NCBI GenBank assembly: GCA_902785935.1
Contig: CADAAN010000005.1
Coordinates: 1 to 60,396, forward strand
Direction of reading: 5' to 3'
From: an uncultured Pseudomonadota bacterium
GTDB taxonomy: Bacteria; Pseudomonadota; Alphaproteobacteria; RF32; CAG-239
DNA length: 60,396 nt
The notes beneath the pieces were generated by a model that saw only the letters and a program-made list of their open reading frames with translations, did no database searches and was not told the origin of the DNA. The position numbers and the translations under genes are program-made. This document shows, in pieces, positions 3,201 through 56,545 of the stretch; within the stretch, counting starts at the first letter, position 1; every line of letters starts with the position of its first letter.

Positions 3201-4202
3201 ATGATAAATAAAAAAGAAATATTAAATCTTCTAACAGCAGGTGATGAAAAATCTCTTTTCAAAATGGCTGATGATGTGCGCCGTCAATACGTCGGCGATG
3301 AGGTGCATCTGAGAGGTTTGATTGAGTTTTCAAACATCTGTCGCAACAATTGTCTTTACTGCGGTATAAGAAAAGGCAATGCAAAAGCCGTTCGTTATCG
3401 TATGAGCGAAGAAGAATTAATAAAAACGGCACAAAATGCCGCAAATATGGGTTTTAAAACCATTGTGATGCAATCGGGTGAAGACTTATATTATGACACA
3501 AGCCGGATGTGCCGCATCATTGAAACGATTAAAAAATTTGATGTTGCTGTTACGCTAAGTATCGGGGAGCGTACATATGCCGAATATAAGGCTTTTCGCA
3601 ATGCGGGTGCCGACCGTTATTTAATGCGTATCGAAACGACTGATAAAGACCTTTATCATAAACTTGATCCATTGATGAGTTGGGACAGGCGATATGAGTG
3701 CTTAATGATGATTAAAGAGCTTGGCTATGAGCTTGGATCAGGTATTATGGTCGGACTTCCGGGGCAAACGATAGAGTCTATCGCCGATGATTTGCTCTTT
3801 TTACAAAAAATCGGAATTGATATGGCCGGTATCGGACCATTTATTCCGCACCAAGAAACTCCTTTAAAAAATGAAAAAGGCGGAACTTTAAGTCTTGCAC
3901 TACGCACAATGTCTGTTATGCGCCTTATGATGAAAGACATCAATATTCCGGCGACAACGGCGATGGAAAGTTTACATCCGATGGGTCGTATTATGGCGCT
4001 TCAAGCCGGAGCCAATGTTGTGATGCCGAATGTGACCGAAGGTGAATATCGCAAGTTTTATGAGCTTTATCCGGGCAAAATTTGTGTTGATGAAAAGCCC
4101 TTGCAGTGCCGTACATGCATCGGTATGAAGATTGAAAGTATCGGCCGCAAAATCGGTCAGGGCTACGGCGGGCATAACGGCAAAATGCCGATAAAAAAAT
4201 AA
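3201..4202 (+). CDS. hydE: [FeFe]-hydrogenase H-cluster maturase HydE (radical SAM)
   Basis: RRQYVGDEVHLRGLIEFSNICRNNCLYCGIRKGN carries the CxxxCxxC radical-SAM motif. Further matches are MQSGED, GADRYL, GSGIMVGLPGQT, IPATTAM and YPGKIC, collinear with HydE as I remember it from Thermotoga. Confidence 0.85.
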   Translation: MINKKEILNLLTAGDEKSLFKMADDVRRQYVGDEVHLRGLIEFSNICRNNCLYCGIRKGNAKAVRYRMSEEELIKTAQNAANMGFKTIVMQSGEDLYYDTSRMCRIIETIKKFDVAVTLSIGERTYAEYKAFRNAGADRYLMRIETTDKDLYHKLDPLMSWDRRYECLMMIKELGYELGSGIMVGLPGQTIESIADDLLFLQKIGIDMAGIGPFIPHQETPLKNEKGGTLSLALRTMSVMRLMMKDINIPATTAMESLHPMGRIMALQAGANVVMPNVTEGEYRKFYELYPGKICVDEKPLQCRTCIGMKIESIGRKIGQGYGGHNGKMPIKK

Positions 4203-4231
4203 TTTTCTTTCAAAAAATATCCAAAAATATG

Positions 4232-4260
4232 TTGACATTTGTCTATTTATATGCCAAAAT
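4232..4260 (+). promoter_or_regulatory. Putative sigma70 promoter of leader copy A
   Basis: TTGACA (4232-4237), 17-nt spacer, CAAAAT (4255-4260). Confidence 0.45.
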
Positions 4261-4266
4261 TAAGGC

Positions 4267-4514
4267 ATGACAGGTGAAGTAATTTATCTGTCAAGTGCCA
4301 GATAAGGGCACGGAGCTTTGAACAGCTCTACAAGCTGCAGTGAGGATAACACTGTGTTTTATAGTGTTGTTTTTTTGTTTTAAACAACATTTATCCCCGA
4401 AAAGTCGGGGGATCTGTGGCGTATGTACAAGGTTTAAACCTAAAGACCACGGAAGTCATTCCAGCTTGTATGATTGTTCAATTCCCCGTTGCTCTCAAAG
4501 GTGCGACTTTTTTT
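4267..4514 (+). promoter_or_regulatory. Structured two-terminator 5' leader RNA, family copy A
   Basis: Shares the ordered blocks of copies B-F: GUGCC..GGCAC hairpin, GGAGC hairpin, terminator 1 (AACACU/AGUGUU + U-run, 4348-4376), AUCCCCGA/UCGGGGGAU hairpin (4393-4413), GUGG...CCAC helix enclosing GUAUGUACA..CUAAAG, AGUCAUU, AUGAUU, and CCCC followed by terminator 2 (4487-4514). Confidence 0.75.
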
Positions 4515-4541
4515 AACAAACTTAATCATAGGAGAATCAAT

Positions 4542-5609
4542 ATGAAAGAAGAATATATCGATAAAATGGCTGAGGATTTAGCAAAAAAAGGGCTTTTAGA
4601 AGAACATCGCTTATATATGAGCTCAAGCATAGAAAATGTTTATAAAGAAAATCTGATGAGTTTTAAATCGCATTTGGAAGGGATTGCAAAAGAAGGCTTG
4701 GAATATAAAACAAATAGTACTTGGTCTGATAATAAAGAAATTACTCCTGATGAAATTGTCGCACGCGGTACATGGTATCTTGATGCAAAACGAGAAGGAA
4801 TAGAAAGGCTAAAAAAAGACCATGAACAATCCTTAAAAAAAGAAAGAGAAGCTGAGATTATTAATGACAAATTTCAACGACTTGATGAAATGAGAGAATT
4901 TTTGCGTGGATGTCCTGCTTGTGAGTATTGCTCGTATGATCAAATTATGGCTTTGGCTTCAGACAAAGCACAACAAAAAAACGTTACGCTCTTTGAATCA
5001 AAAGAACAACCGACAAAAGGTATAAAAAGACTTTTTATGAGCAAGAAAGAAAAACAAGCAGAAGCCAAGAGAATTGAAGAAAAGAAAAAAGCATATGAAA
5101 ATGCAAATAAATTTATCAATCAATTTGCCTCAAAATACCAAAATGATCCAATCATTCGGGAAGTCAATTCATTTAAGCTGGCGCAAGAGCTTTGGGCAGA
5201 TGCTTACAGTGCTAAAGAAAGTTATGACGGCGGAAAATTTGTTTATTTTGATAAAGAAAAAAATGCCTATGAAATCAGCGAGTTTGAAAAATTAGAGGCA
5301 TTATATAAACCGGCTCAGGAAAAAATTCAAAGCCAGTTGCATGAAGAAGTTCAATTAAAACAAACTGCGCGTGAGACATCCGGTGTAAAAGATATTGAAA
5401 ACAATACGGGCGTTGATATACTTTCCTTAAAGGAAGAAATCAGAAATAATGCACCCTCAGGTAAAGATATGTCTTCAAAAGAGCTTTATCAGGCAATGAT
5501 GAAAATGCGCGGTTTAGGCAAAGCGACAGAACATTCTTCATCAAAACAAGATTTCAGTCAATCAACTATTGATTTAAAACAAATTAGAAGTAATGAAGAA
5601 CATAGATAA
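4542..5609 (+). CDS. Hypothetical Lys/Glu-rich protein (355 aa) with no signal peptide and a CPACEYC motif
   Basis: ATG at 4542 is preceded by GGAG (4531-4534). The longer ORF-track start at 4416 lies inside the leader RNA. Confidence 0.6.
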   Translation: MKEEYIDKMAEDLAKKGLLEEHRLYMSSSIENVYKENLMSFKSHLEGIAKEGLEYKTNSTWSDNKEITPDEIVARGTWYLDAKREGIERLKKDHEQSLKKEREAEIINDKFQRLDEMREFLRGCPACEYCSYDQIMALASDKAQQKNVTLFESKEQPTKGIKRLFMSKKEKQAEAKRIEEKKKAYENANKFINQFASKYQNDPIIREVNSFKLAQELWADAYSAKESYDGGKFVYFDKEKNAYEISEFEKLEALYKPAQEKIQSQLHEEVQLKQTARETSGVKDIENNTGVDILSLKEEIRNNAPSGKDMSSKELYQAMMKMRGLGKATEHSSSKQDFSQSTIDLKQIRSNEEHR

Positions 5610-9030: not shown

Positions 9031-9573
9031 TACCTCTCTTTAAAAGAATCATTAAATAATTCCCTTGTCTCAAAAGAAGAGTGGAATTATGATAGTGAAG
9101 ATTATTCCGTTTATACAAAAACAACATCGGATGGAAAGGTCGTATACAAACAGGATAATACGGATTGCTCTGGAGGCCTCTATGAATGTGGTGTTTGGAA
9201 AACTTATGATACAAAAGGAAATCTGATTAGTCAACGATGTGTTATGGCTGTTTATGATGACGCCCAATCCTCTGCTTATGCTGACTATTGTGATATGAAT
9301 GGGATACAAAACAATTATGCTGATAAATTATTTCAATATGATTATCAGTCTGAAGTTGAAAGAAAAATAGAAAACACGTACGATGAAAATTTAAATTTAT
9401 TGTACACAGAAGAATTCTTATATGTAGATGGTCAAGAGATAACTGATCACTACAAAAAAACGGTAAATGAATCCAGCAATTCAGAATCTAAGCCCGTCAA
9501 GCGCATATATACCATCGATGAGGCCAACCAAGTCGCTGGAAAGACAAACACCTTTTCGATTCGGTACAGCTAA
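9031..9573 (+). pseudogene. 5'-truncated member of the C-terminal-tag family (no start codon, RBS, signal peptide or leader)
   Basis: The frame is open from 9031, but the first ATG is at 9244. It ends ...KPVKRIYTIDEANQVAGKTNTFSIRYS*. The upstream in-frame part (EEWNYDSEDYSVYTKTTSDGKVVYKQDNTDCSGGLYECGVWKTYD) looks coding. Confidence 0.55.
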
Positions 9574-18511: not shown

Positions 18512-18563
18512 TTTTTTAATTATCTCAATTTTCATACATCAAGCATAAAAATTATTTTTATGC

Positions 18564-18593
18564 TTGACTGGGGCTGTTTTTTTATGTTATAGT
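18564..18593 (+). promoter_or_regulatory. Putative sigma70 promoter of leader copy B
   Basis: TTGACT (18564-18569), 18-nt spacer, TATAGT (18588-18593). It overlaps the malQ terminator hairpin AGCATAAAAAT/ATTTTTATGCT. Confidence 0.45.
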
Positions 18594-18599
18594 TAAAGG

Positions 18600-18851
18600 C
18601 AGATAAGAAAGTTTAGGCTTTTTTATCAAGTACCCTGATAGGGTGCGGAGTTTCTTAAGGCTCTATTAGCTGCGATGATAGGATACATCGTAATTTTATG
18701 GTGTTTTTTTGTTTTTAAAACACAATTATCCCCGAGATTTTAGTCGGGGGACTTGTAACGGATGTCCAAGGATTTTCCTAAAGGTTATAAGAGTCATTTC
18801 AGCTAATATGATTTTAAGATTCCCCGTCGCTCCTCAAGGCGCGGCTTTTTT
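18600..18851 (+). promoter_or_regulatory. Structured two-terminator 5' leader RNA, family copy B
   Basis: Same block order as copy A: GUACCC..GGGUGC hairpin, terminator 1 at 18685-18710, AUCCCCGAG/UCGGGGGA hairpin, GUAAC...GUUAU helix enclosing GGAUGUCCA..CUAAAG, AGUCAUUU, AUGAUU, and CCCC followed by terminator 2 at 18824-18851. Confidence 0.75.
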
Positions 18852-18891
18852 AATATGTAATGACATGCAAAATAAAAACAGGAGAAAAAAT

Positions 18892-19788
18892 ATGAAAAAA
18901 TATATTTTGATTATCGGATTGATCATATCATGGAGTGCAAAGGCAAGTGATGAAATAACGATTGTGGCTCAAACAGACCCGAATGATGCTTCAACAAAAT
19001 GCGGGAATGATTGTACATGGAAACTTTACAGCGACGGCCGGTTTGAAATAACAGGAACAGGTGCCATGTATGATTACGGGCAAAAACACGGAATTAATAC
19101 AAACTGGGCTGTAGATGGTTCTCCTTGGGATGATTATATCGATCAAATTAAATCCGTCGACATTTCACACGGCATTACGACAGTAGGAAATAGCGCTTTT
19201 AAAGGAGCCTTAAATTTAAAAAATGTTCAAATACCAGAGGGTGTGGTATCAATCGGAAATGGCTCATTTATGAGCTGTCAGATGCCTGAAATCAAATTAC
19301 CGGATTCACTCAAAAAAATAGATGCTTGGGCATTTGCAGAAAGTGTATTTTCAAAAATTGATATACCTGTTTCTGTCGAAGAGATAGGACGAGCTGCATT
19401 TTGGGGTACAAGAATCGGAACACTTGTCTTGCCGGATTTGCTCAAATCTATGGCAAGTGATGTATTTTACGCATCTACGGTCAACACAATTGTAATTTCA
19501 GATAAGCTCAGCAACATTGATCAAGGCGCTTTTAACGGCGCAATTCATTTACAATCGATTTACTGCACCGGCGATGTCGATGTTTGCAAAACAAATGTCG
19601 GCGAAAGTTTTGCCGATAAAGTCAAAAAAGCCTCAATAAAGAAAATTAACGGCGTGACATATGTTGTTGATAACAAAGGAAAAATTGTCGCGACATCCGG
19701 CCATCGTACAGAAAAACGCATTTATACAATCGATGAAGCAAACCAAGTTGCTGGAAAAATAAATTCGGTCTCAATTCGGTATCGATAA
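18892..19788 (+). CDS. Secreted BspA-type leucine-rich-repeat protein with C-terminal RIYTIDEAN...IRYR tag
   Basis: Start at 18892 after GGAG. Signal peptide MKKYILIIGLIISWSAKA. Repeats of the type IxxIGxxAFxxC/xxLxxIxIP. The last 24 aa are KRIYTIDEANQVAGKINSVSIRYR. Confidence 0.85.
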   Translation: MKKYILIIGLIISWSAKASDEITIVAQTDPNDASTKCGNDCTWKLYSDGRFEITGTGAMYDYGQKHGINTNWAVDGSPWDDYIDQIKSVDISHGITTVGNSAFKGALNLKNVQIPEGVVSIGNGSFMSCQMPEIKLPDSLKKIDAWAFAESVFSKIDIPVSVEEIGRAAFWGTRIGTLVLPDLLKSMASDVFYASTVNTIVISDKLSNIDQGAFNGAIHLQSIYCTGDVDVCKTNVGESFADKVKKASIKKINGVTYVVDNKGKIVATSGHRTEKRIYTIDEANQVAGKINSVSIRYR

Positions 19789-20530: not shown

Positions 20531-20558
20531 TATTTTTCCCCAAATGATGAAACAGTAG

Positions 20559-20777
20559 AAAAACCACCTTTTAAGGTGGTCAGGGCGTTCATAAATCATA
20601 TATCTCGAAATGACTTTGATGGTCTTTAGAAAAAAAATCCTGAACATTCACCATCAACACCCCGACCGAATGTCAGGGATATAATTTGTTTTGACAGCTA
20701 TCCAACTGTCACGAGATATAAAGGTTTATGAAAACCCCGCACCTTTTCGGTGCTGTACGGCACAATATAACCATACT
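20559..20777 (-). promoter_or_regulatory. Structured 5' leader RNA, family copy F (divergent; terminator 1 lacks a U-run)
   Basis: Minus strand reads GCGGGGUUU..AAACCUU hairpin, GACAG..CUGUC hairpin, AUCCCUGAC/GUCGGGG hairpin, UUGAUGG...CCAUCAA helix enclosing GAAUGUUCA..CUAAAG, AGUCAUUU, AUGAUU, CCCUGAC, then terminator CCACC/GGUGG + U5 (20559-20580). Candidate promoter TTGTTT-17-TATACT at 20784-20812. Confidence 0.6.
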
Positions 20778-20818
20778 CAAGAGAGTATATGCCAATGTCT
20801 GTTAAAAAACAATGAAAA

Positions 20819-21431: not shown

Positions 21432-21617
21432 ATGCAATCCGCTCCGTCAACAACTCAATATTCAAACACCTATTACATCAAAAATGCTGATGGCAGTACA
21501 ACCATGAAAAATGCAAATGGTGATATCATAGGCTTTGAGGGCAAGCGTATTTACACCATCGATGAGGCGAATGCCGTTGCGGGTAAAGTCAATTCTGTTA
21601 CGATTCGCTACCGATAG
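21432..21617 (+). pseudogene. Orphan 61-codon ORF that carries only the C-terminal tag region
   Basis: ...NANGDIIGFEGKRIYTIDEANAVAGKVNSVTIRYR*. No SD sequence, signal peptide or LRR part. Confidence 0.5.
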
Positions 21618-25836: not shown

Positions 25837-25876
25837 TTTTTTTATTAACAAGCTTTTCCTTCCATGCCATAATAAG

Positions 25877-25927
25877 GCCAATCAGGTCGTGGGAGAAACA
25901 AATACCTTTTCGATTCGATACCGATAA
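25877..25927 (+). pseudogene. 16-codon remnant of the C-terminal tag
   Basis: gcc aat cag gtc gtg gga gaa aca aat acc ttt tcg att cga tac cga taa translates to ANQVVGETNTFSIRYR*. The IYTIDE part is missing. Confidence 0.6.
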
Positions 25928-26696: not shown

Positions 26697-26785
26697 GGAA
26701 CGTTGGCAGAGTGGTAATGCAGCGGATTGCTAATCCGTCATCCCCTTAAAAGGATGCATAGGTTCGAGTCCTATACGTTCCGCCA
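26697..26785 (+). tRNA. tRNA-Ser (anticodon GCU), CCA encoded
   Basis: Acceptor GGAACGT/ACGTTCC, anticodon loop TTGCTAA, long variable arm, TTCGAGT T-loop. Confidence 0.95.
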
Positions 26786-37945: not shown

Positions 37946-38464
37946 ATGAGGCTTTATCACTATGCACCGAAAAACAACACCTGCCTAAAAGACGGGATTT
38001 TATGTGCGCTTAAATCATCGCAAAATTTAAAACACTACGTCGCCAGAGCCGGCTCGGAAGATACAAAAGAAATCGAAAAATGGATGGAAAGCACTTTTGA
38101 AGGACGTTCTCGCTCAATATCCGTTTTAACGGAACCCGTTAGGTGGCAAGGGAATGATCCGGGACTAAAAACCTTTGCTGAAGAGCATAATTTGTTTTCA
38201 TTTGAGCTTGATGATTTGTTAAAAGATGGTGTTGTAGAGGCTGTTTGGTGTAAAGATGGTTCAGATGCTCAAGGAAAAAATGAAAAATTCTTCAAAGTTT
38301 TGCCCGAAGAAATTGATTATTCACCATTGTCGTGGCATAAAGTCTGCTTTGAAAAGGGTTTATTTTTCGCTGTCATCAGACATTATTTGCTTGTCTTAAA
38401 AAACGGGGTCATTGAGCCGAAATATTTAAAAAAGATACAAAAAAAACAAAAAAACTATGACTAA
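37946..38464 (+). CDS. Uncharacterised protein, LYHY/FEGRSR/TEP/KYLKKI family, paralog 2
   Basis: ATG 37946 after GGGAG. 172 aa, collinear with 20819..21340. Confidence 0.7.
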   Translation: MRLYHYAPKNNTCLKDGILCALKSSQNLKHYVARAGSEDTKEIEKWMESTFEGRSRSISVLTEPVRWQGNDPGLKTFAEEHNLFSFELDDLLKDGVVEAVWCKDGSDAQGKNEKFFKVLPEEIDYSPLSWHKVCFEKGLFFAVIRHYLLVLKNGVIEPKYLKKIQKKQKNYD

Positions 38465-38482
38465 AGTTATAGATTTTTTTAA

Positions 38483-38511
38483 TTGACTATTAACAAATTG
38501 TGTGGTTTAAT
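38483..38511 (+). promoter_or_regulatory. Putative sigma70 promoter of leader copy C
   Basis: TTGACT (38483-38488), 17-nt spacer, TTTAAT (38506-38511). Confidence 0.55.
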
Positions 38512-38517
38512 GAAAAT

Positions 38518-38772
38518 CGGATGGGAAAAGGAATTTTTCTATCAAGTGCCTGAGACGGGCGCGGAGCTTTCCAAAGCTCATTGACCTTAGACAGTGAGGA
38601 TAACACTGTATTGATGTGGTGTTATTTTTTGTTTTAAATAACACATTATCCCCGAAAAATGATCGGGGAGCCGGTAGCGGATGTTCAGGATTTTTAATCT
38701 AAAGGTTATCGGAGTCATCTTCTAAGGTATGATTTTGGAACTCTCCGACCGCTCTTTTAGGGGCGGTTTTTT
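38518..38772 (+). promoter_or_regulatory. Structured two-terminator 5' leader RNA, family copy C
   Basis: GUGCC..GGGCGC hairpin, GAGCUUU/AAAGCUC hairpin, terminator 1 AUAACAC/GUGUUAU + U6 (38600-38630), AUCCCCGA/UCGGGGAG hairpin, CCGGUA...UAUCGG helix enclosing GGAUGUUCA..CUAAAG, AGUCAUC, AUGAUU, and terminator 2 ACCGC/GCGGU + U6 (38748-38772). Confidence 0.8.
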
Positions 38773-38809
38773 GGTATTGTCATCGCGTCACGATACCATA
38801 AGAAGAACA

Positions 38810-38963
38810 ACAACTATTTTTTGTAAAGGAATTAAAAAAATGAAAAACAATGAAAACGGCCGTTCAATGGTTGAAATGCTCGGTGTACAACTATTTTTTG
38901 TAAAGGAATTAAAAAAATGAAAAACAATGAAAACGGCCGTTCAATGGTTGAAATGCTCGGTGT
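38810..38963 (+). repeat. Perfect 77-bp tandem duplication covering the RBS and first 16 codons of the pilin-like gene
   Basis: 38810-38886 equals 38887-38963: acaactattttttgtaaaggaattaaaaaaatgaaaaacaatgaaaacggccgttcaatggttgaaatgctcggtgt. Confidence 0.95.
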
Positions 38964-41370: not shown

Positions 41371-41429
<59 letters not shown>

Positions 41430-41447
<18 letters not shown>

Positions 41448-43090: not shown

Positions 43091-43197
43091 TAATCTTTTG
43101 TTTTAAAACTTTTGTCGTTTTAGCTTAAATTTTTTCAAAATGCAAGCAAATGTTTGAGTTTGAAACGATTTTTTTCTTTGTATAAAAAAATTTTTCT

Positions 43198-43226
43198 TTA
43201 CAAAACAATATTTCTTTGCTAAAATA
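43198..43226 (+). promoter_or_regulatory. Putative sigma70 promoter of leader copy D
   Basis: TTTACA (43198-43203), 17-nt spacer, TAAAAT (43221-43226). Confidence 0.55.
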
Positions 43227-43232
43227 AAACCA

Positions 43233-43462
43233 CGATGGAAGTGATTTCATTGAGAACCGAGAGGTTCGGGGCTGTAGCAGGCTCTATGTTCAGTGATACC
43301 AGAAATGGTATCCTTTTAGGATGCCTTTTTTTGGTATTTAAATCCCCGCTCGGGTGGGGAGATTATGGCGTATGTACAAGCCTTAAAGCTAAAGGTCATA
43401 ATGGTCATTACACTGAACATGATTTGCTAACTCCCCTGCCGCTCAATTGAGCGGATTTTTTT
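43233..43462 (+). promoter_or_regulatory. Structured two-terminator 5' leader RNA, family copy D
   Basis: GAACC..GGUUC hairpin, terminator 1 GGUAUCCU/AGGAUGCC + U7 (43307-43332), UCCCC..GGGGA hairpin, UUAUG...CAUAA helix enclosing GUAUGUACA..CUAAAG, GGUCAUU, AUGAUU, CUCCCC, and terminator 2 CCGCUC/GAGCGG + U7 (43439-43462). Confidence 0.7.
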
Positions 43463-43465
43463 GTA

Positions 43466-43541
43466 ATGACGTTAACAATAACAACGTCATCCTGAACTTG
43501 TTTCAGGATCTTTTTAGATCCCGAAATAAATTCGGGATGAC
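43466..43541. repeat. Nested-palindrome (three-hairpin) MITE/REP-like element between leader D and the RBS
   Basis: ATGACGTT..AACGTCAT, ATCCTGAA..TTCAGGAT and GATCCCGAA..TTCGGGAT hairpins, closed by outer complementarity GTCATCC...GGATGAC. Absent from the equivalent position in copies A, B, C, E and F. Confidence 0.5.
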
Positions 43542-43558
43542 AGAATAGGAGAAATAAT

Positions 43559-44686
43559 ATGAAGAAATATGTTTTGATTTTAGGAATACTCGCAAGTTTT
43601 AACGCACAAGCAAATGAAGGTTGGAAAAATTGCGATGATGAAGGCAGCTCAAATTGTGAATATCAAATCAAAGACGGCGTTTTAACCGTCCGTCCGCAGG
43701 ATGATACGCAACCTGCAAATATTCCGGATTTCGCAAGAGATTGTTCAATGACACGGTATTCTGAGTGTACGACAACCGCACCATGGAAATGGGATGAGAA
43801 TACAAATACGATAACAACCTTAAAAGTTGAAAATGGTATCACTTCTATCGGATCAGATGCTTTTGAAGATATGCCTTTTACAACGGCACACTTGCCCGAC
43901 ACCTTAACTTCAATCGGAAGTTTTGCTTTTCTAGAATCAGGTAAGTTAGGGTACATTAATTTACCGAACAAGCTTGAAACAATAGGTGATTATGCTTTTA
44001 CCTCCAATTTCTCAAGTCAAAATAATAATATTGTTATTATTCCTGATTCGGTTAATGAAGTTGGAAAGTATGTTTTTTCAGGAGGAACGGAGAGAATTGT
44101 CGTGGGTGGAAATACGAATCTTGACCCTGATGCATTAATTTATTACGGACAAACAAGCACGAAAATCCAGTTTAACCATTTTACAATGTATTGCGCCGAA
44201 AGTAATACATCTTGCCAAGAAGCGATTGAAAAAGCTTTGAATTTTGCAAAAAATGCCGGAAATGCTGATGTCTCTGCACAAGCTTCTGATTTTCTTACAA
44301 CTTACACCAAGGACGATAACGGATTTTATCAAATCGGTGATAAACTTTATGCAACGGCAGATTTGATGACCAAAGGCGCTGCTTGTGATAATCCGCAAAA
44401 CTGCCGAGATATTTTAGATGCCGCATCACAAGGCAAGCCTTTTGAAGTCGGCGGCAAATATTACGCTACGCTTGATTTGTTTGCAAGGGGCGCGGCTTGC
44501 ACGGACAAACAAAATTGTGAAGATATTTTGGCCTCAAACGGGGCGCCTTTCAAAGTCGGTTCAAAAATCTACAATTCGATGGAAGATTTTGCTTTAGGCA
44601 ACAATATCAAATTCCGCATCTACACCATCGATGAGGCGAATGAGGTCGCGGGAAAGACAAATTCCTTCAAAATCAGGTATCGCTAG
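43559..44686 (+). CDS. Secreted BspA-type LRR protein with C-terminal tag
   Basis: Signal peptide MKKYVLILGILASFNAQA. LRR units such as ITSIGSDAFEDM..LPDTLTSIGSFAF..LPNKLETIGDYAF. Three GxKxY..DL..G modules. Ends FRIYTIDEANEVAGKTNSFKIRYR*. Confidence 0.85.
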   Translation: MKKYVLILGILASFNAQANEGWKNCDDEGSSNCEYQIKDGVLTVRPQDDTQPANIPDFARDCSMTRYSECTTTAPWKWDENTNTITTLKVENGITSIGSDAFEDMPFTTAHLPDTLTSIGSFAFLESGKLGYINLPNKLETIGDYAFTSNFSSQNNNIVIIPDSVNEVGKYVFSGGTERIVVGGNTNLDPDALIYYGQTSTKIQFNHFTMYCAESNTSCQEAIEKALNFAKNAGNADVSAQASDFLTTYTKDDNGFYQIGDKLYATADLMTKGAACDNPQNCRDILDAASQGKPFEVGGKYYATLDLFARGAACTDKQNCEDILASNGAPFKVGSKIYNSMEDFALGNNIKFRIYTIDEANEVAGKTNSFKIRYR

Positions 44687-52544: not shown

Positions 52545-53492
52545 TTAGCGATACTTTATTTTAAAAGAATTAACTTTACCTGCGACCTGATTGGCCTCAT
52601 CAATGGTGTAAATTTTTTTATTCCTAAAACCAATAATATTATTATCAGCATCTAAAATTGTAACACTTCCATCAGGTTTTATGATTTCTTGCTTTGATGG
52701 TAGCGCATTTCCTTTTACAAGATCTTCAAGAGAAGCATATTTTTCCCCTCCGTATTCTAAAATTTTCCCATCAGAGCTTGCTTCTATAAGAGCAGGACAT
52801 TCATCTTCGTCACACAAGCCTTCTTCTTGCAAAAATGCCATTTGAGCTTCGTATAATGAACTAAACCAACGTCCATCATCATAAAACATGTCATCAAAAT
52901 AAAAATAATACATTTCTTGTGAACCGCAAAAATAAATTCCACCATCTTCTTTTGTATACCATTCCAGATTGGTTGTTCCTTTCTTGGGATTTAATATTCT
53001 TCCATCGTTCATCCAAGAAGAACCTTCTGGAATAAACATAGCTTCTATAGATATATAATCAAATGCTCCATTTTTTACTTCCGTAACCGAATCCGGAACA
53101 ACCAATGCATCTGATTTAAGTCCTGCAAACGAATATTTTCCTATTGAATTTAAGGAATTTGGTAAAGATACGTACTCTAAATCATAAGATTCAAAACAAT
53201 CTCCATGAGCACAGTGGCCAAAAGCATAATTTCCAATATTTTGGATGCCTTCTGCAACATAAATGTTAGTTATATCAGGCACATAAGATTTCCATGGTAC
53301 ATCATCTTGATGCTCATAATCATCCATTACGGCTGTATCTCCGTTTGTCGGCTCGATGATTAAAGTGTAATCATTACCAATTTTCCAACTGCAATTTGTA
53401 CCGCACGTACCACCCTCTGCAACAAGTGCATTTGTTTGTGTGGATGAAAACATTCCGATAAAAAATGTAAATACAAGAATTTTATTTTTCAT
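52545..53492 (-). CDS. Secreted LRR-containing protein with C-terminal tag
   Basis: Signal peptide MKNKILVFTFFIGMFSSTQTNA. CGTNCSWKI...PW N-terminal module as in the other members. LRR units such as IQNIGNYAF, LPNSLNSIGKYSF. Ends KKIYTIDEANQVAGKVNSFKIKYR*. Confidence 0.8.
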   Translation of the reverse strand: MKNKILVFTFFIGMFSSTQTNALVAEGGTCGTNCSWKIGNDYTLIIEPTNGDTAVMDDYEHQDDVPWKSYVPDITNIYVAEGIQNIGNYAFGHCAHGDCFESYDLEYVSLPNSLNSIGKYSFAGLKSDALVVPDSVTEVKNGAFDYISIEAMFIPEGSSWMNDGRILNPKKGTTNLEWYTKEDGGIYFCGSQEMYYFYFDDMFYDDGRWFSSLYEAQMAFLQEEGLCDEDECPALIEASSDGKILEYGGEKYASLEDLVKGNALPSKQEIIKPDGSVTILDADNNIIGFRNKKIYTIDEANQVAGKVNSFKIKYR

Positions 53493-53520
53493 ATTTTTTC
53501 TCCTTATTTTTTACGTCATT

Positions 53521-53768
53521 AAAAAAAGTCGCACCTTATAGAGCGACGGGGAGTGTGAAAATCATGTAATGGAAAATGACTCTGGTGACCTTTAGGTAAA
53601 CCTTGTACATTCGTCGCCAGCTCCCCGAGCATTTTTCGGGGATATTCGTGTTTAAAAATAAAAAAACACTATAAAGTTACAGTGTATCTATCACTGTCCA
53701 TTACAAAGGCTTTCACAAGCCCCGCACCCTATCAGGGTACTTGATAGAAAAATCACTTTTTCCATCCG
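53521..53768 (-). promoter_or_regulatory. Structured two-terminator 5' leader RNA, family copy E
   Basis: Minus strand reads AUCGGAUGGAAAAAG..UCAAGUACCCUGAUAGGGUGCGGGGCUU..AAGCC, terminator 1 ACACU/AGUGU + U7 (53655-53685), AUCCCCGA/CUCGGGGAG hairpin, CUGGCGAC...GUCACCAG helix enclosing GAAUGUACA..CUAAAG, AGUCAUUU, AUGAUU, CUCCCC, and terminator 2 GUCGC/GCGAC + U7 (53521-53547). Confidence 0.78.
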
Positions 53769-53774
53769 ATGGCT

Positions 53775-53803
53775 ATTATCGCATAGTAAATAACAAATGT
53801 CAA
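53775..53803 (-). promoter_or_regulatory. Putative sigma70 promoter of leader copy E
   Basis: On the minus strand: TTGACA (53803-53798), 17-nt spacer, GATAAT (53780-53775). Confidence 0.55.
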
Positions 53804-53816
53804 ACAAAAATATTTT

Positions 53817-54872
53817 TTATTGTCTGAAATATACCGGCAATTGAAAAACATTTTCCAAAAAGAAAAGCGAAATAAAGCAAATCAGCATGGCCGTCAAAGG
53901 TGTTGTCAGCCAGCCGGCAACAATACGAAATGTAATTGACCAATTAATACCTTTACCTCCTTTAAGCAAACCAATACCTAAAATTGCGCCGATAACGGCC
54001 TGCGTGCTTGAAACAGGAACAAGAGGCAAAGCAGGGATACCGGCTGTCATTAAAGTATTTCGCAATCCTTGAGATGAAAACAAAAACAGTACCAATGCCT
54101 CAGATAAAACGACAATAAATGCAATAAACGGGGACATCTTCATCACACTTTTACCGACGGTTGCCATGACTTTTTGAGAATAGGTAAAAATACCGACGGA
54201 AATAGCAATTGCACCTAAAAAGAATAAGACTTGTTCGGGTGAAAACGTTAACGCATTGATTCTGAGAACTTCAAAGGGAGCTGTCTTTACAAATACACCC
54301 ATAACATTTGCAATATTGTTTGCCCCGAGTGCATAGGTACAAAATGCACCGGCAAATACAAAACCTGTTTTGATAAGCTGATATTGTTTTAAGACATGAA
54401 GATGCATGAGATGAAAAGCTTTTTTGAGTACAAAATAGAGCACAACGGCAAGAAAAGCCGCCAAAATCGGACAAAGTACCCATCCTGTCATAATGCTTGT
54501 TAAAACAGAAAAATCAGTCTGATGGCCTACATATATATTCCAAGCGATAATACTACCGACTATTGCTTGTGATGTTGAAGTCGTCAAGCCCGTTCTTGCC
54601 ATAAAATAAACGCTTAAACCTGCAGATAACGCCACCATAAATGCACCGGCAACGGCATTGACTTCGCCTAATTTTGTTAAAGTTTCGGTTGTCGCGGCAC
54701 CGCCAAAAACGGCACCTAATATAATAAAAATACTTGCAATGACTGCGGCTGTTTTAAATTTAAGCATTTTTGAACCGACGGCCGCTCCGAAAATGTTTGA
54801 CACATCATTGGCGCCTAAAGACCAGCCTAAAAACAAACCGCTTGATAGAAAAAACAGGTATATCGGACTCAT
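53817..54872 (-). CDS. PiT-family inorganic phosphate transporter
   Basis: GANDVSNIFGAAVGS and a second GANNIANVMG repeat, about 10 TM segments. Confidence 0.9.
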   Translation of the reverse strand: MSPIYLFFLSSGLFLGWSLGANDVSNIFGAAVGSKMLKFKTAAVIASIFIILGAVFGGAATTETLTKLGEVNAVAGAFMVALSAGLSVYFMARTGLTTSTSQAIVGSIIAWNIYVGHQTDFSVLTSIMTGWVLCPILAAFLAVVLYFVLKKAFHLMHLHVLKQYQLIKTGFVFAGAFCTYALGANNIANVMGVFVKTAPFEVLRINALTFSPEQVLFFLGAIAISVGIFTYSQKVMATVGKSVMKMSPFIAFIVVLSEALVLFLFSSQGLRNTLMTAGIPALPLVPVSSTQAVIGAILGIGLLKGGKGINWSITFRIVAGWLTTPLTAMLICFISLFFLENVFQLPVYFRQ

Positions 54873-56407: not shown

Positions 56408-56497
56408 TTGATTGAATATAAAAAAAGTCCGCTTCATTTGAGGCGGATTTTTTTTAATTGATATGTAAAAATTAACAAATTGCCTGACATCAATTCC

Positions 56498-56545
56498 AAT
56501 TTTGTCGCAGGTTCGACAAATACCTTTTCGATTCGCTATCGGTAA
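56498..56545 (+). pseudogene. 15-codon remnant of the C-terminal tag
   Basis: aat ttt gtc gca ggt tcg aca aat acc ttt tcg att cgc tat cgg taa translates to NFVAGSTNTFSIRYR*. The frame is open only from 56462. Confidence 0.55.

Follow-up and report, generated by a model that had tools for sequence, protein, structure and literature searches.

The region 4393-4514 of contig CADAAN010000005.1, a stretch of 60,396 nt (hereafter the window) from an uncultured alphaproteobacterium of the RF32 lineage (assembly GCA_902785935.1), is probably the expression platform of an undescribed cis-regulatory leader RNA of about 250 nt, in which a G-rich strand exchanges between two C-rich strands and so controls an intrinsic terminator, T2. 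The window holds six copies of the leader, A to F, of which copy A appears to run on the forward strand from a start near 4267 to the end of the T2 U-run at 4514. In this copy the G strand (4405-4413, UCGGGGGAU; GUCGGGGGAU when counted 4404-4413) can pair either with the upstream C-rich strand C1 (4393-4400, AUCCCCGA), the 5' arm of the proposed anti-antiterminator hairpin with a loop of 4 nt, or with the downstream C-rich strand C2 (4481-4488, AUUCCCCG; to 4490 with the following UU), the 3' strand of a closing helix P1. The initial annotation, made from the letters of the window, had placed the three strands at exactly these positions, with C2 abutting T2, and had described one G-rich strand complementary to two C-rich strands in all six copies. 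We confirmed this for copy A and for B to F, where all three strands recur, and found the same complementarity in about 100 homologues.

Homologues were searched for in one genome per species with a sequence pattern taken from the conserved core. This led to the identification of at least 99 loci, all among metagenome-assembled genomes (MAGs) of uncultured Alphaproteobacteria whose names mostly refer to rumen or reticulum, and two of these MAGs, RGIG5118 and RUG11221, each hold at least 23-25 copies. Contigs of RGIG5118 share 78-90% nucleotide identity with the window. A covariance model built from the alignment recovered 108 strong copies (93-164 bits), 2 of them outside the search pattern. 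Pairing of the three strands was counted over 101 aligned copies (alignment A2) and pairing over the full structure over 99 leaders, and an unbiased mutual-information scan was run on 67 full-length leaders; identifiers beginning with L denote homologous loci.

C1:G is 93.5% paired and G:C2 90% paired, both above 500 of 500 shuffles and above all slid controls. As the G strand is common to both helices, its variants were read position by position. At column 89 of the alignment an A>U change in G (10 copies) is compensated by A or G in C2 in 9 of the 10 and never in C1, and at column 90 a G>A change comes with C>U in C2 in 3 copies; both changes support G:C2 independently of C1. Conversely, U>G at column 83 comes with A>C in C1 in 11 copies, which form the subfamily class D (C2 also pairs in only 2 of the 11), C>U at column 84 with G>A in C1 in 5 copies, and G>A at column 86 with C>U in C1 in 3 copies (L093 and two degenerate ones), and these support C1:G independently of C2. 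Two loci, L006 and L024, show triple compensation of C1, G and C2. RNAalifold, which can choose one of the two helices, picked C1:G together with the helices P2, P3 and P4, and the C1:G loop varies in sequence and in length, from 3 to 20 nt. These comparisons of sequences support the conclusion that C1:G and G:C2 are mutually exclusive and that both are under selection. The compensatory evidence that the initial annotation had drawn from copy F proved weak, as copy F has an unchanged G strand and its two C>U changes produce nothing but G·U wobbles. Across the family the C>U changes at these positions give the triple U-G-U once, C-G-U five times and U-G-C twice. Its more general statement, that the two C-rich strands co-vary, is weak in the main family, where these C>U changes are uncorrelated; genuine three-way compensation is seen in L006, in L024 and in a related family (F3, below).

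The terminators were called with a criterion of our own, a hairpin followed by a U tract, because a simple scan flagged the P4' hairpin alone: T1 has too few GC pairs for such a scan, and the T2 loop, at more than 8 nt, is too long. T2 (4488-4514; stem 4488-4492 / 4503-4507, inner pairs 4494-4495 / 4500-4501, U-run 4508-4514) was called in 87 of 100 copies (median -9.8 kcal/mol). The longest G:C2 helix measures 7-13 bp with one mismatch allowed, and in 65 of these 87 copies it overlaps the 5' arm of T2 by 3-5 nt; the outer G:C2 pairs that do so are conserved. T2 thus lies between promoter and open reading frame (ORF), G:C2 shares the 5' arm of T2, and C1:G excludes G:C2, an arrangement which fits a putative antiterminator (G:C2) opposed by a putative anti-antiterminator (C1:G).

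An earlier terminator, T1 (4349-4383; stem 4349-4355 / 4361-4367, U-rich tract 4368-4383), was called in 77 of 100 copies (median -8.8 kcal/mol). The P4' hairpin CAGUG-AGGAUAA-CACUG (4338-4354; 94.8% paired, 5/5 pairs compensatory) qualifies as its antiterminator since its 3' arm is shared with T1. Downstream of the U tract, the X2 strand AAACAACA (4382-4389) is a second complement of the T1 3' arm; the complementarity is about as strong as the T1 stem and amounts to 4.2 nt within a copy against 3.2 nt between copies. T1 is missing in 23 of 100 copies, including copy F, and these keep the 5' hairpins, the linker Lk and P4'. The picture of two terminators in series that had first been drawn for the leader is therefore right as to the terminators themselves and incomplete as a description, as T1 is often missing and the two halves of the leader form one fold.

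The strongest covariation in the whole leader, as revealed by the mutual-information scan, comes from two long-range helices, PK1 and PK2, which join these halves. In copy A the 5' domain consists of the hairpins P1a (4270-4291), P1b (4295-4311; 94.6% paired, 5/5 pairs compensatory) and P1c (4312-4329, loop L1c 4318-4324; 95.2% paired, 4/4 pairs compensatory), followed by Lk (4330-4337) between P1c and P4'. The 3' domain contains P2 (4414-4419 / 4447-4452; about 98.5-98.6% paired, 7/8 pairs compensatory), which holds a conserved asymmetric internal loop (G-N-AUGU-N-CA and AAAG, within 4414-4452) and encloses P3 (4430-4433 / 4438-4441), and P4 (4455-4474, stem GUCAU / AUGAU) with its 10-nt loop L4 (4460-4469). 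PK1 pairs UGAACA in the P1c loop (4319-4324) with UGUUCA in J4/1 (4475-4480), which in copy A lies directly 5' of C2 and in most copies ends about 2 nt upstream of it. PK2 pairs Lk (ACAAGCUG) with CAGCUUGU (4462-4469), engaging 8 of the 10 bases of L4. Over the 99 leaders PK1, of 5-7 bp, is 90.7% paired with 5/5 pairs compensatory, and PK2, of 8 bp, is 86.4% paired with 8/8 pairs compensatory despite a 2-column misalignment of class D. Overall P1b, P1c, P4' and P2 are 94.6-98.5% paired, and none of 500 shuffles matched the whole structure.

These contacts are specific to each copy. In 95 of 100 copies a stretch of 7 nt or more in the P4 loop is perfectly complementary to the 5' domain of the same leader; between different copies the perfect complements average 4.7 nt, and only 0.7% of the comparisons yield 8 nt. 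For PK1 the perfect complements are 5-8 nt within a copy against a mean of 4.6 nt between different copies. The two partners in the 5' domain lie 6-8 nt apart in about 85% of copies, and all six window copies have perfect PK1 and PK2 complements whose sequences differ from copy to copy. The switching decision would consequently be taken within one compact fold and not in an isolated trio of hairpins, because PK1 and PK2 bind the 5' domain to the 3' domain. The possibility that these addresses are kept more distinct within a genome than between genomes was rejected, the mean Hamming distance being 5.0 in both cases, so that they look random and not over-dispersed. A further strand in P1c, G0 (CGGRGCU), was considered by eye as another partner of C1 or C2 and dropped, as it showed no consistent complementarity in the window copies or in the related families. 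By eye, P1a is often capped by a GNRA tetraloop (GAAA, GCAA, GUGA or GCGA; for example L040, L045, L046, L087 and L093) and the P2/P3 internal loop, NAUGU...CCUAAAG, loosely resembles the 11-nt tetraloop receptor UAUGG / CCUAAG, which hints at a third point at which the two domains may be in contact.

Weak matches of the covariance model proved to be relatives of the leader from the same MAGs, with other cores and the same layout. Family F2 comprises L085:6829-6995, L014:4226-4381 and L057:7502-7685; family F3 comprises L050:7281-7440, L004:7840-8000, L086:7128-7283 (minus strand) and L064:6992-7151 (minus strand), to which a metagenome scan added 11 more members (L100, L102, L104-L106, L108, L109, L112, L113, L115 and L117). 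The C1, G and C2 strands of F3 are approximately UUUCCAGYC, GGCUGGAAG and CUUCCAGYC, and in 12 of 15 members all 9 bp of G:C2 are present. In L050 and L112, whose G strand has C at position 4, the facing base is G in C1 as well as in C2; in the members with U at this position it is A in C2 in all 12 and A in C1 in at least 7. This is a three-way covariation, seen when L050 and L112 are compared with L064, L086, L100, L105 and L109. In F2 the triplet, defined by eye, is UYYGCU, RGCGGAUGU and ACAUCCGC. Both families lack T1 and keep PK1 and PK2 as reciprocal helices from loop to flank. Three families with different cores thus have a common architecture of C1, G and C2, a terminator, PK1 and PK2, and as they share almost no sequence in these strands and yet have the same triplet, the three-strand logic is conserved across families. 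No leader of the sister families was found when they were looked for in the window.

These families bear on two other explanations. One is that the leader consists of two independent attenuators or riboswitches in tandem, module 1 with T1 and module 2 with T2, forming a gate with two inputs. Two hairpins with U-tracts do stand in series, each is opposed by an alternative helix (P4' against T1, G:C2 against T2), and the conserved sequences of the two halves differ. We nonetheless find a tandem quite improbable, since PK1 and PK2, the top covariation signals, couple the halves, the 5' hairpins, Lk and P4' are retained where T1 is missing, and both long-range helices persist in the sister families that have no T1. 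The other explanation is translational control, in which free C2, whose CUCC resembles an anti-Shine-Dalgarno sequence, would pair with the GGAG of the Shine-Dalgarno (SD) sequence, and the SD-like G strand (GGGGAG) would titrate C2. C2 does hold CUCC or CUCUCC and the genes do have AGGAG or GGAG ribosome-binding sites (RBS), a pairing on which covariation is uninformative as the SD sequence is fixed. The complementarity, however, extends over only 4-5 nt, as any C/U-rich strand would offer, T2 with its U-run intervenes between C2 and the SD sequence, and in F2 the C2 strand has no anti-SD character, so that we regard this explanation as scarcely credible.

The energies of the alternative states were estimated by constrained folding without pseudoknots. 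Before the 3' arm of T2 exists, the ON state (G:C2) differs from the OFF state (C1:G) by -0.64 ± 4.3 kcal/mol (ON minus OFF) and has the lower energy in 54 of 101 copies; once T2 is complete, C1:G with T2 lies 3.5 kcal/mol below G:C2 on average and has the lower energy in 77% of copies. By this model the two states are about iso-energetic just before completion of T2, as would fit a poised attenuator. The same figures bear on the idea that C1:G is a transient placeholder guiding the folding of a constitutive RNA (a small RNA ending at T2, or a stabilising 5' untranslated region, UTR) that senses nothing. C1:G is indeed made first and can later give way to a helix about as stable, the RNA is large and strongly folded (z-score of the full-length fold, -7.1), and T2 could simply end a small RNA. 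We still consider this unlikely. The distance from T2 to the SD sequence and ATG, about 25-40 nt in the window copies, leaves no space for a promoter, so that expression of the gene requires read-through; conservation extends to the outer G:C2 pairs, those overlapping T2; and the end state, C1:G with T2, is the more stable one, the opposite of what is expected of a mere folding intermediate.

Controlled termination at T2 by exchange of the three strands therefore remains the reading that we prefer, and the mechanism may be as follows. Transcription would start near 4267, after which the 5' hairpins fold. In about three quarters of copies the competition of P4' with the T1 stem, which exclude each other, could act as an earlier gate. 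C1, transcribed first, would capture the G strand in a local hairpin, a hairpin whose pairing is selected. P2, P3 and P4 would then fold, and PK2 and PK1 would dock the 5' domain on the 3' domain, a three-way junction closed by P1, that is, by the G strand and C2. Complete P1 would be the antiterminator because its outer 3-5 bp use nucleotides of the bottom of T2. By default the leader would be OFF: C1:G leaves C2 free, T2 forms and transcription ends before the gene. In the ON state C2, emerging next to PK1, would displace C1 from G, complete P1 and remove the bottom of T2, allowing read-through. A toehold for this displacement could be the 3'-most base of the G strand, which stacks on P2 and never pairs with C1. 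An effector may set the partition between the two states, the candidates being a small molecule or a protein at the invariant P2/P3 internal loop, or completion of the docking between the 5' and 3' domains.

Besides the omission of pseudoknots from the energies, several points weigh against this reading. The G:C2 helix overlaps T2 by merely 1-2 nt in 13 of 87 copies, and in copy A itself by 1 nt when counted strictly and by 3 nt when one U·U mismatch is admitted. In class D the predicted minimum-energy fold holds a 6-bp G:C2 helix together with an intact T2. Because C1:G is the first helix to form and a very stable one, switching calls for a trigger. The invariance of AUGU, CUAAAG, GUCAU and AUGAU is partly by construction, because the search pattern fixed AUGU-N-CARG, CUAAAG, GUCAU and AUGAU; L009, a copy found by the covariance model only, has a P4 stem AUCAU / AUGGU in which pairing is retained. 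Finally, the P4' loop GGAUA is complementary to UAUCC in the 5' half of C1, and this complementarity, a candidate helix PK3, is conserved (a flanking position is A:U in 36 copies and U:A in 9), but in a formal covariation test PK3 did no better than shuffles (79.7% against 79.0%). As a hypothesis, PK3 would act as a relay from P4' through C1, G and C2 to T2, freeing G. In all, the transcription attenuator proposed by the initial annotation is partly supported, by the exclusive and conserved pairings, the overlap with T2 and the poised energies, and is not helped by the argument from copy F or by the 1-nt overlap in copy A.

To place the leader among known RNAs, the whole window was scanned with the Rfam 15 covariance models. 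At the gathering threshold the scan returned two tRNAs only, and for 4200-4560 at E-values up to 10 it returned chance-level matches only, MicC (19 bits, threshold 90) and Phe_leader (18.5 bits, threshold 55). The leader thus falls in no Rfam 15 family, including T-box, PyrR binding site, c-di-GMP-I/II and leader-peptide attenuators. The two tRNA genes lie at 26697-26782 and 41371-41444, and one has a long variable arm. A search of the literature on riboswitches of RF32/Alphaproteobacteria, on BspA RNA motifs and on candidate structured RNAs of the rumen found no description of the leader; the sole rumen motif of the paper on 224 motifs is ROOL, which is unrelated to it. The leader hence appears to be previously undescribed. 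Three further leaders (L015:92-268, L094:3863-4039 and L081:5791-5912) are devoid of the entire 5' domain and of C1 and have a promoter-like TTGACT that immediately precedes a degenerate G strand. Such copies may be natural variants without C1 that could help to predict constitutive read-through.

The leader always lies between a sigma-70 promoter and the SD sequence and ATG of a gene, and the distance from T2 to the start codon is short and fairly constant. In copy A the promoter (4232-4260; TTGACA, a 17-nt spacer and TG-CAAAAT, with 10/12 matches and an extended -10 in the promoter scan) predicts transcription to start at about 4266-4268, and its position relative to the leader is kept in other copies. 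The SD sequence AGGAG (4530-4534) precedes the start codon (4542-4544) of an ORF that ends at 5609. An SD-preceded ORF follows the leader in 85 of 100 copies. A Pfam scan of these 85 ORFs identified 49 BspA-type LRR_5 proteins, 9 LRR_8 proteins, 4 Bundlin/PilS-type pilins, 3 helix-turn-helix regulators and 2 acyltransferases, a pattern with which the genes downstream of the window copies agree. By eye most of the N-termini resemble signal peptides, and the proteins encoded downstream of the sister-family leaders likewise appear to have them. The leader thus appears to gate, as far as this genomic context can tell, transcription of dozens of surface-protein genes in uncultured Alphaproteobacteria of the rumen and gut. 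A leader peptide was rejected as a candidate, as the ORFs starting at two conserved AUGs span from 3 to more than 100 codons among the 100 copies.

Such a regulon is also the context in which a protein-driven switch has to be weighed, with a protein acting in the manner of PyrR or CsrA on the C1:G hairpin, on the C-rich strands or on the GGA-containing P4' loop. The many copies per genome would fit one surface-protein regulon, the P4' loop carries a conserved GGAUA, and the three strands are unusually conserved in sequence for helices. We nevertheless give this idea very little credence: the C1:G loop is variable in both length and sequence, the triple pairing constraint already explains the conservation of the strands, no Rfam match to the PyrR binding site or to other protein-binding leaders was found, and the strand sequences differ in the sister families.

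The five other window copies show the same organization. Copy B (18530-18895, plus strand; C1 18728-18736, G 18742-18751, C2 18819-27, Lk 18665-72, L4 18798-18807) precedes a BspA-type LRR_5 gene. Copy C (38440-38842, plus strand; C1 38648-56, G 38661-70, C2 38740-48, Lk 38584-91, L4 38719-28) precedes type IVb pilin genes. Copy D, a member of class D (43170-43562, plus strand; C1 43342-49, G 43352-61, C2 43430-38, Lk 43288-95, L4 43409-18), and copy E (53490-53835, minus strand; C1 53635-43, G 53621-30, C2 53546-54, Lk 53697-704, L4 53566-75) each precede an LRR_5 gene, and copy F (20531-20780, minus strand, without T1; C1 20672-80, G 20658-67, C2 20580-87, Lk 20712-19, L4 20600-09) a methyltransferase gene.

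The sequences around these genes offered some further observations. At 38810-38963 a perfect 77-nt tandem duplication covers the RBS and first codons of the pilin gene of copy C; its first ATG (38840) opens an ORF of only about 26 codons, and the second (38917) opens the 211-amino-acid Bundlin/PilS-type pilin. A C-terminal motif, RIYTIDEANxVAGKxNxFxIRY(R/S) followed by a stop codon, is encoded six times in the window (9502-9572, 19717-19787, 21546-21616, 25856-25926, 44615-44685 and 56474-56544). Two of the copies end the full-length BspA-type LRR genes of leaders B and D, and the other four lie in short frames or remnants of 27-180 codons that look like gene fragments. Most leader-associated proteins of the MAGs end with this motif, which may be a sorting signal. 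In addition, an 849-amino-acid ORF at 15-2564 contains internal direct repeats of 87, 97 and 88 nt that are 72-79% identical; it looks like a repetitive adhesin and has no leader ahead of it within the window.

Taken more broadly, the leaders and at least two sister families may form a superfamily of ornate cis-regulatory RNAs, constituting one or more new riboswitch-like classes, in which the docking of a 5' domain on a 3' sensor and platform, by two reciprocal loop-to-flank helices, gates one or two terminators by three-strand exchange, controlling a large family of paralogous BspA-type surface proteins and type IVb pilins in uncultured gut Alphaproteobacteria. We see the case for and against this generalization as evenly balanced. 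In its boldest version, PK1 and PK2 could be locus-specific addresses through which terminated leaders act in trans on their own locus only, giving a bistable expression of surface proteins that resembles phase variation. If the proposal is true, an elaborate and unrecognised RNA control stands upstream of the main host-interaction genes, those for adhesin-like leucine-rich-repeat proteins and pili, in a little-studied group of rumen and gut Alphaproteobacteria. It would combine a natural, toehold-like exchange of three strands with long-range docking and dual terminators, of use for studies of riboswitch mechanism and for the design of RNA devices, and a defined RNA of about 250 nt would provide a handle on the signal that controls surface proteins in uncultured organisms.

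The logic of the leader is known from attenuators and from riboswitch platforms. Terminator, antiterminator and anti-antiterminator succeed one another in the Bacillus pyr leaders controlled by PyrR, and helix-swapping platforms include the pbuE adenine ON-switch. Like these systems the leader has three successive exclusive helices with an intrinsic terminator before the ORF, an antiterminator that shares nucleotides with the 5' arm of the terminator, and states of balanced energy. In contrast to them, its partner-swapping strand is the 5' strand of the closing helix, the competitor C1 lies upstream of the sensor-like domain, no known binding site or aptamer matches it, and its platform is set in a fold with two long-range helices to a separate 5' domain. 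Two terminators in series within one 5' UTR are also found in metE of Bacillus clausii, a tandem of S-adenosylmethionine and adenosylcobalamin riboswitches; unlike the units of that tandem, those of the leader are joined by PK1 and PK2, and T1 is dispensable in 23% of copies.

Large aptamers also rely on long-range loop contacts, namely the L5-L13 kissing loop of the cobalamin riboswitch, L2-L3 of the lysine riboswitch and the tetraloop-receptor of c-di-GMP-I. The leader resembles them in its size of about 250 nt, its multi-helix junction, its conserved internal-loop nucleotides, its Watson-Crick tertiary contacts adjoining the regulatory helix and, as judged by eye, the many GNRA-capped P1a hairpins, and it resembles c-di-GMP riboswitches in occurring in many copies per genome upstream of pilus and surface-protein genes. 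It differs from them in having no Rfam match even at an E-value of 10, in its reciprocal contacts, in which each of two hairpin loops pairs with the 3' flank of the other, and in the T1 terminator that intervenes between the interacting halves. T-box leaders are likewise long, and two separate Watson-Crick contacts with a partner segment accompany stabilisation of the antiterminator over the terminator. Here, however, the partner is the leader's own 5' domain and not a tRNA, there is no specifier loop, T-box sequence or Rfam match, and the regulated genes encode surface proteins and not amino-acid functions. The leader RNA itself matches no described family, and what is unusual in it is the reciprocal double docking across an internal terminator, the upstream competitor strand, the high copy number and the surface-protein regulon. 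The chance that a new riboswitch-like superfamily is at hand is substantial.

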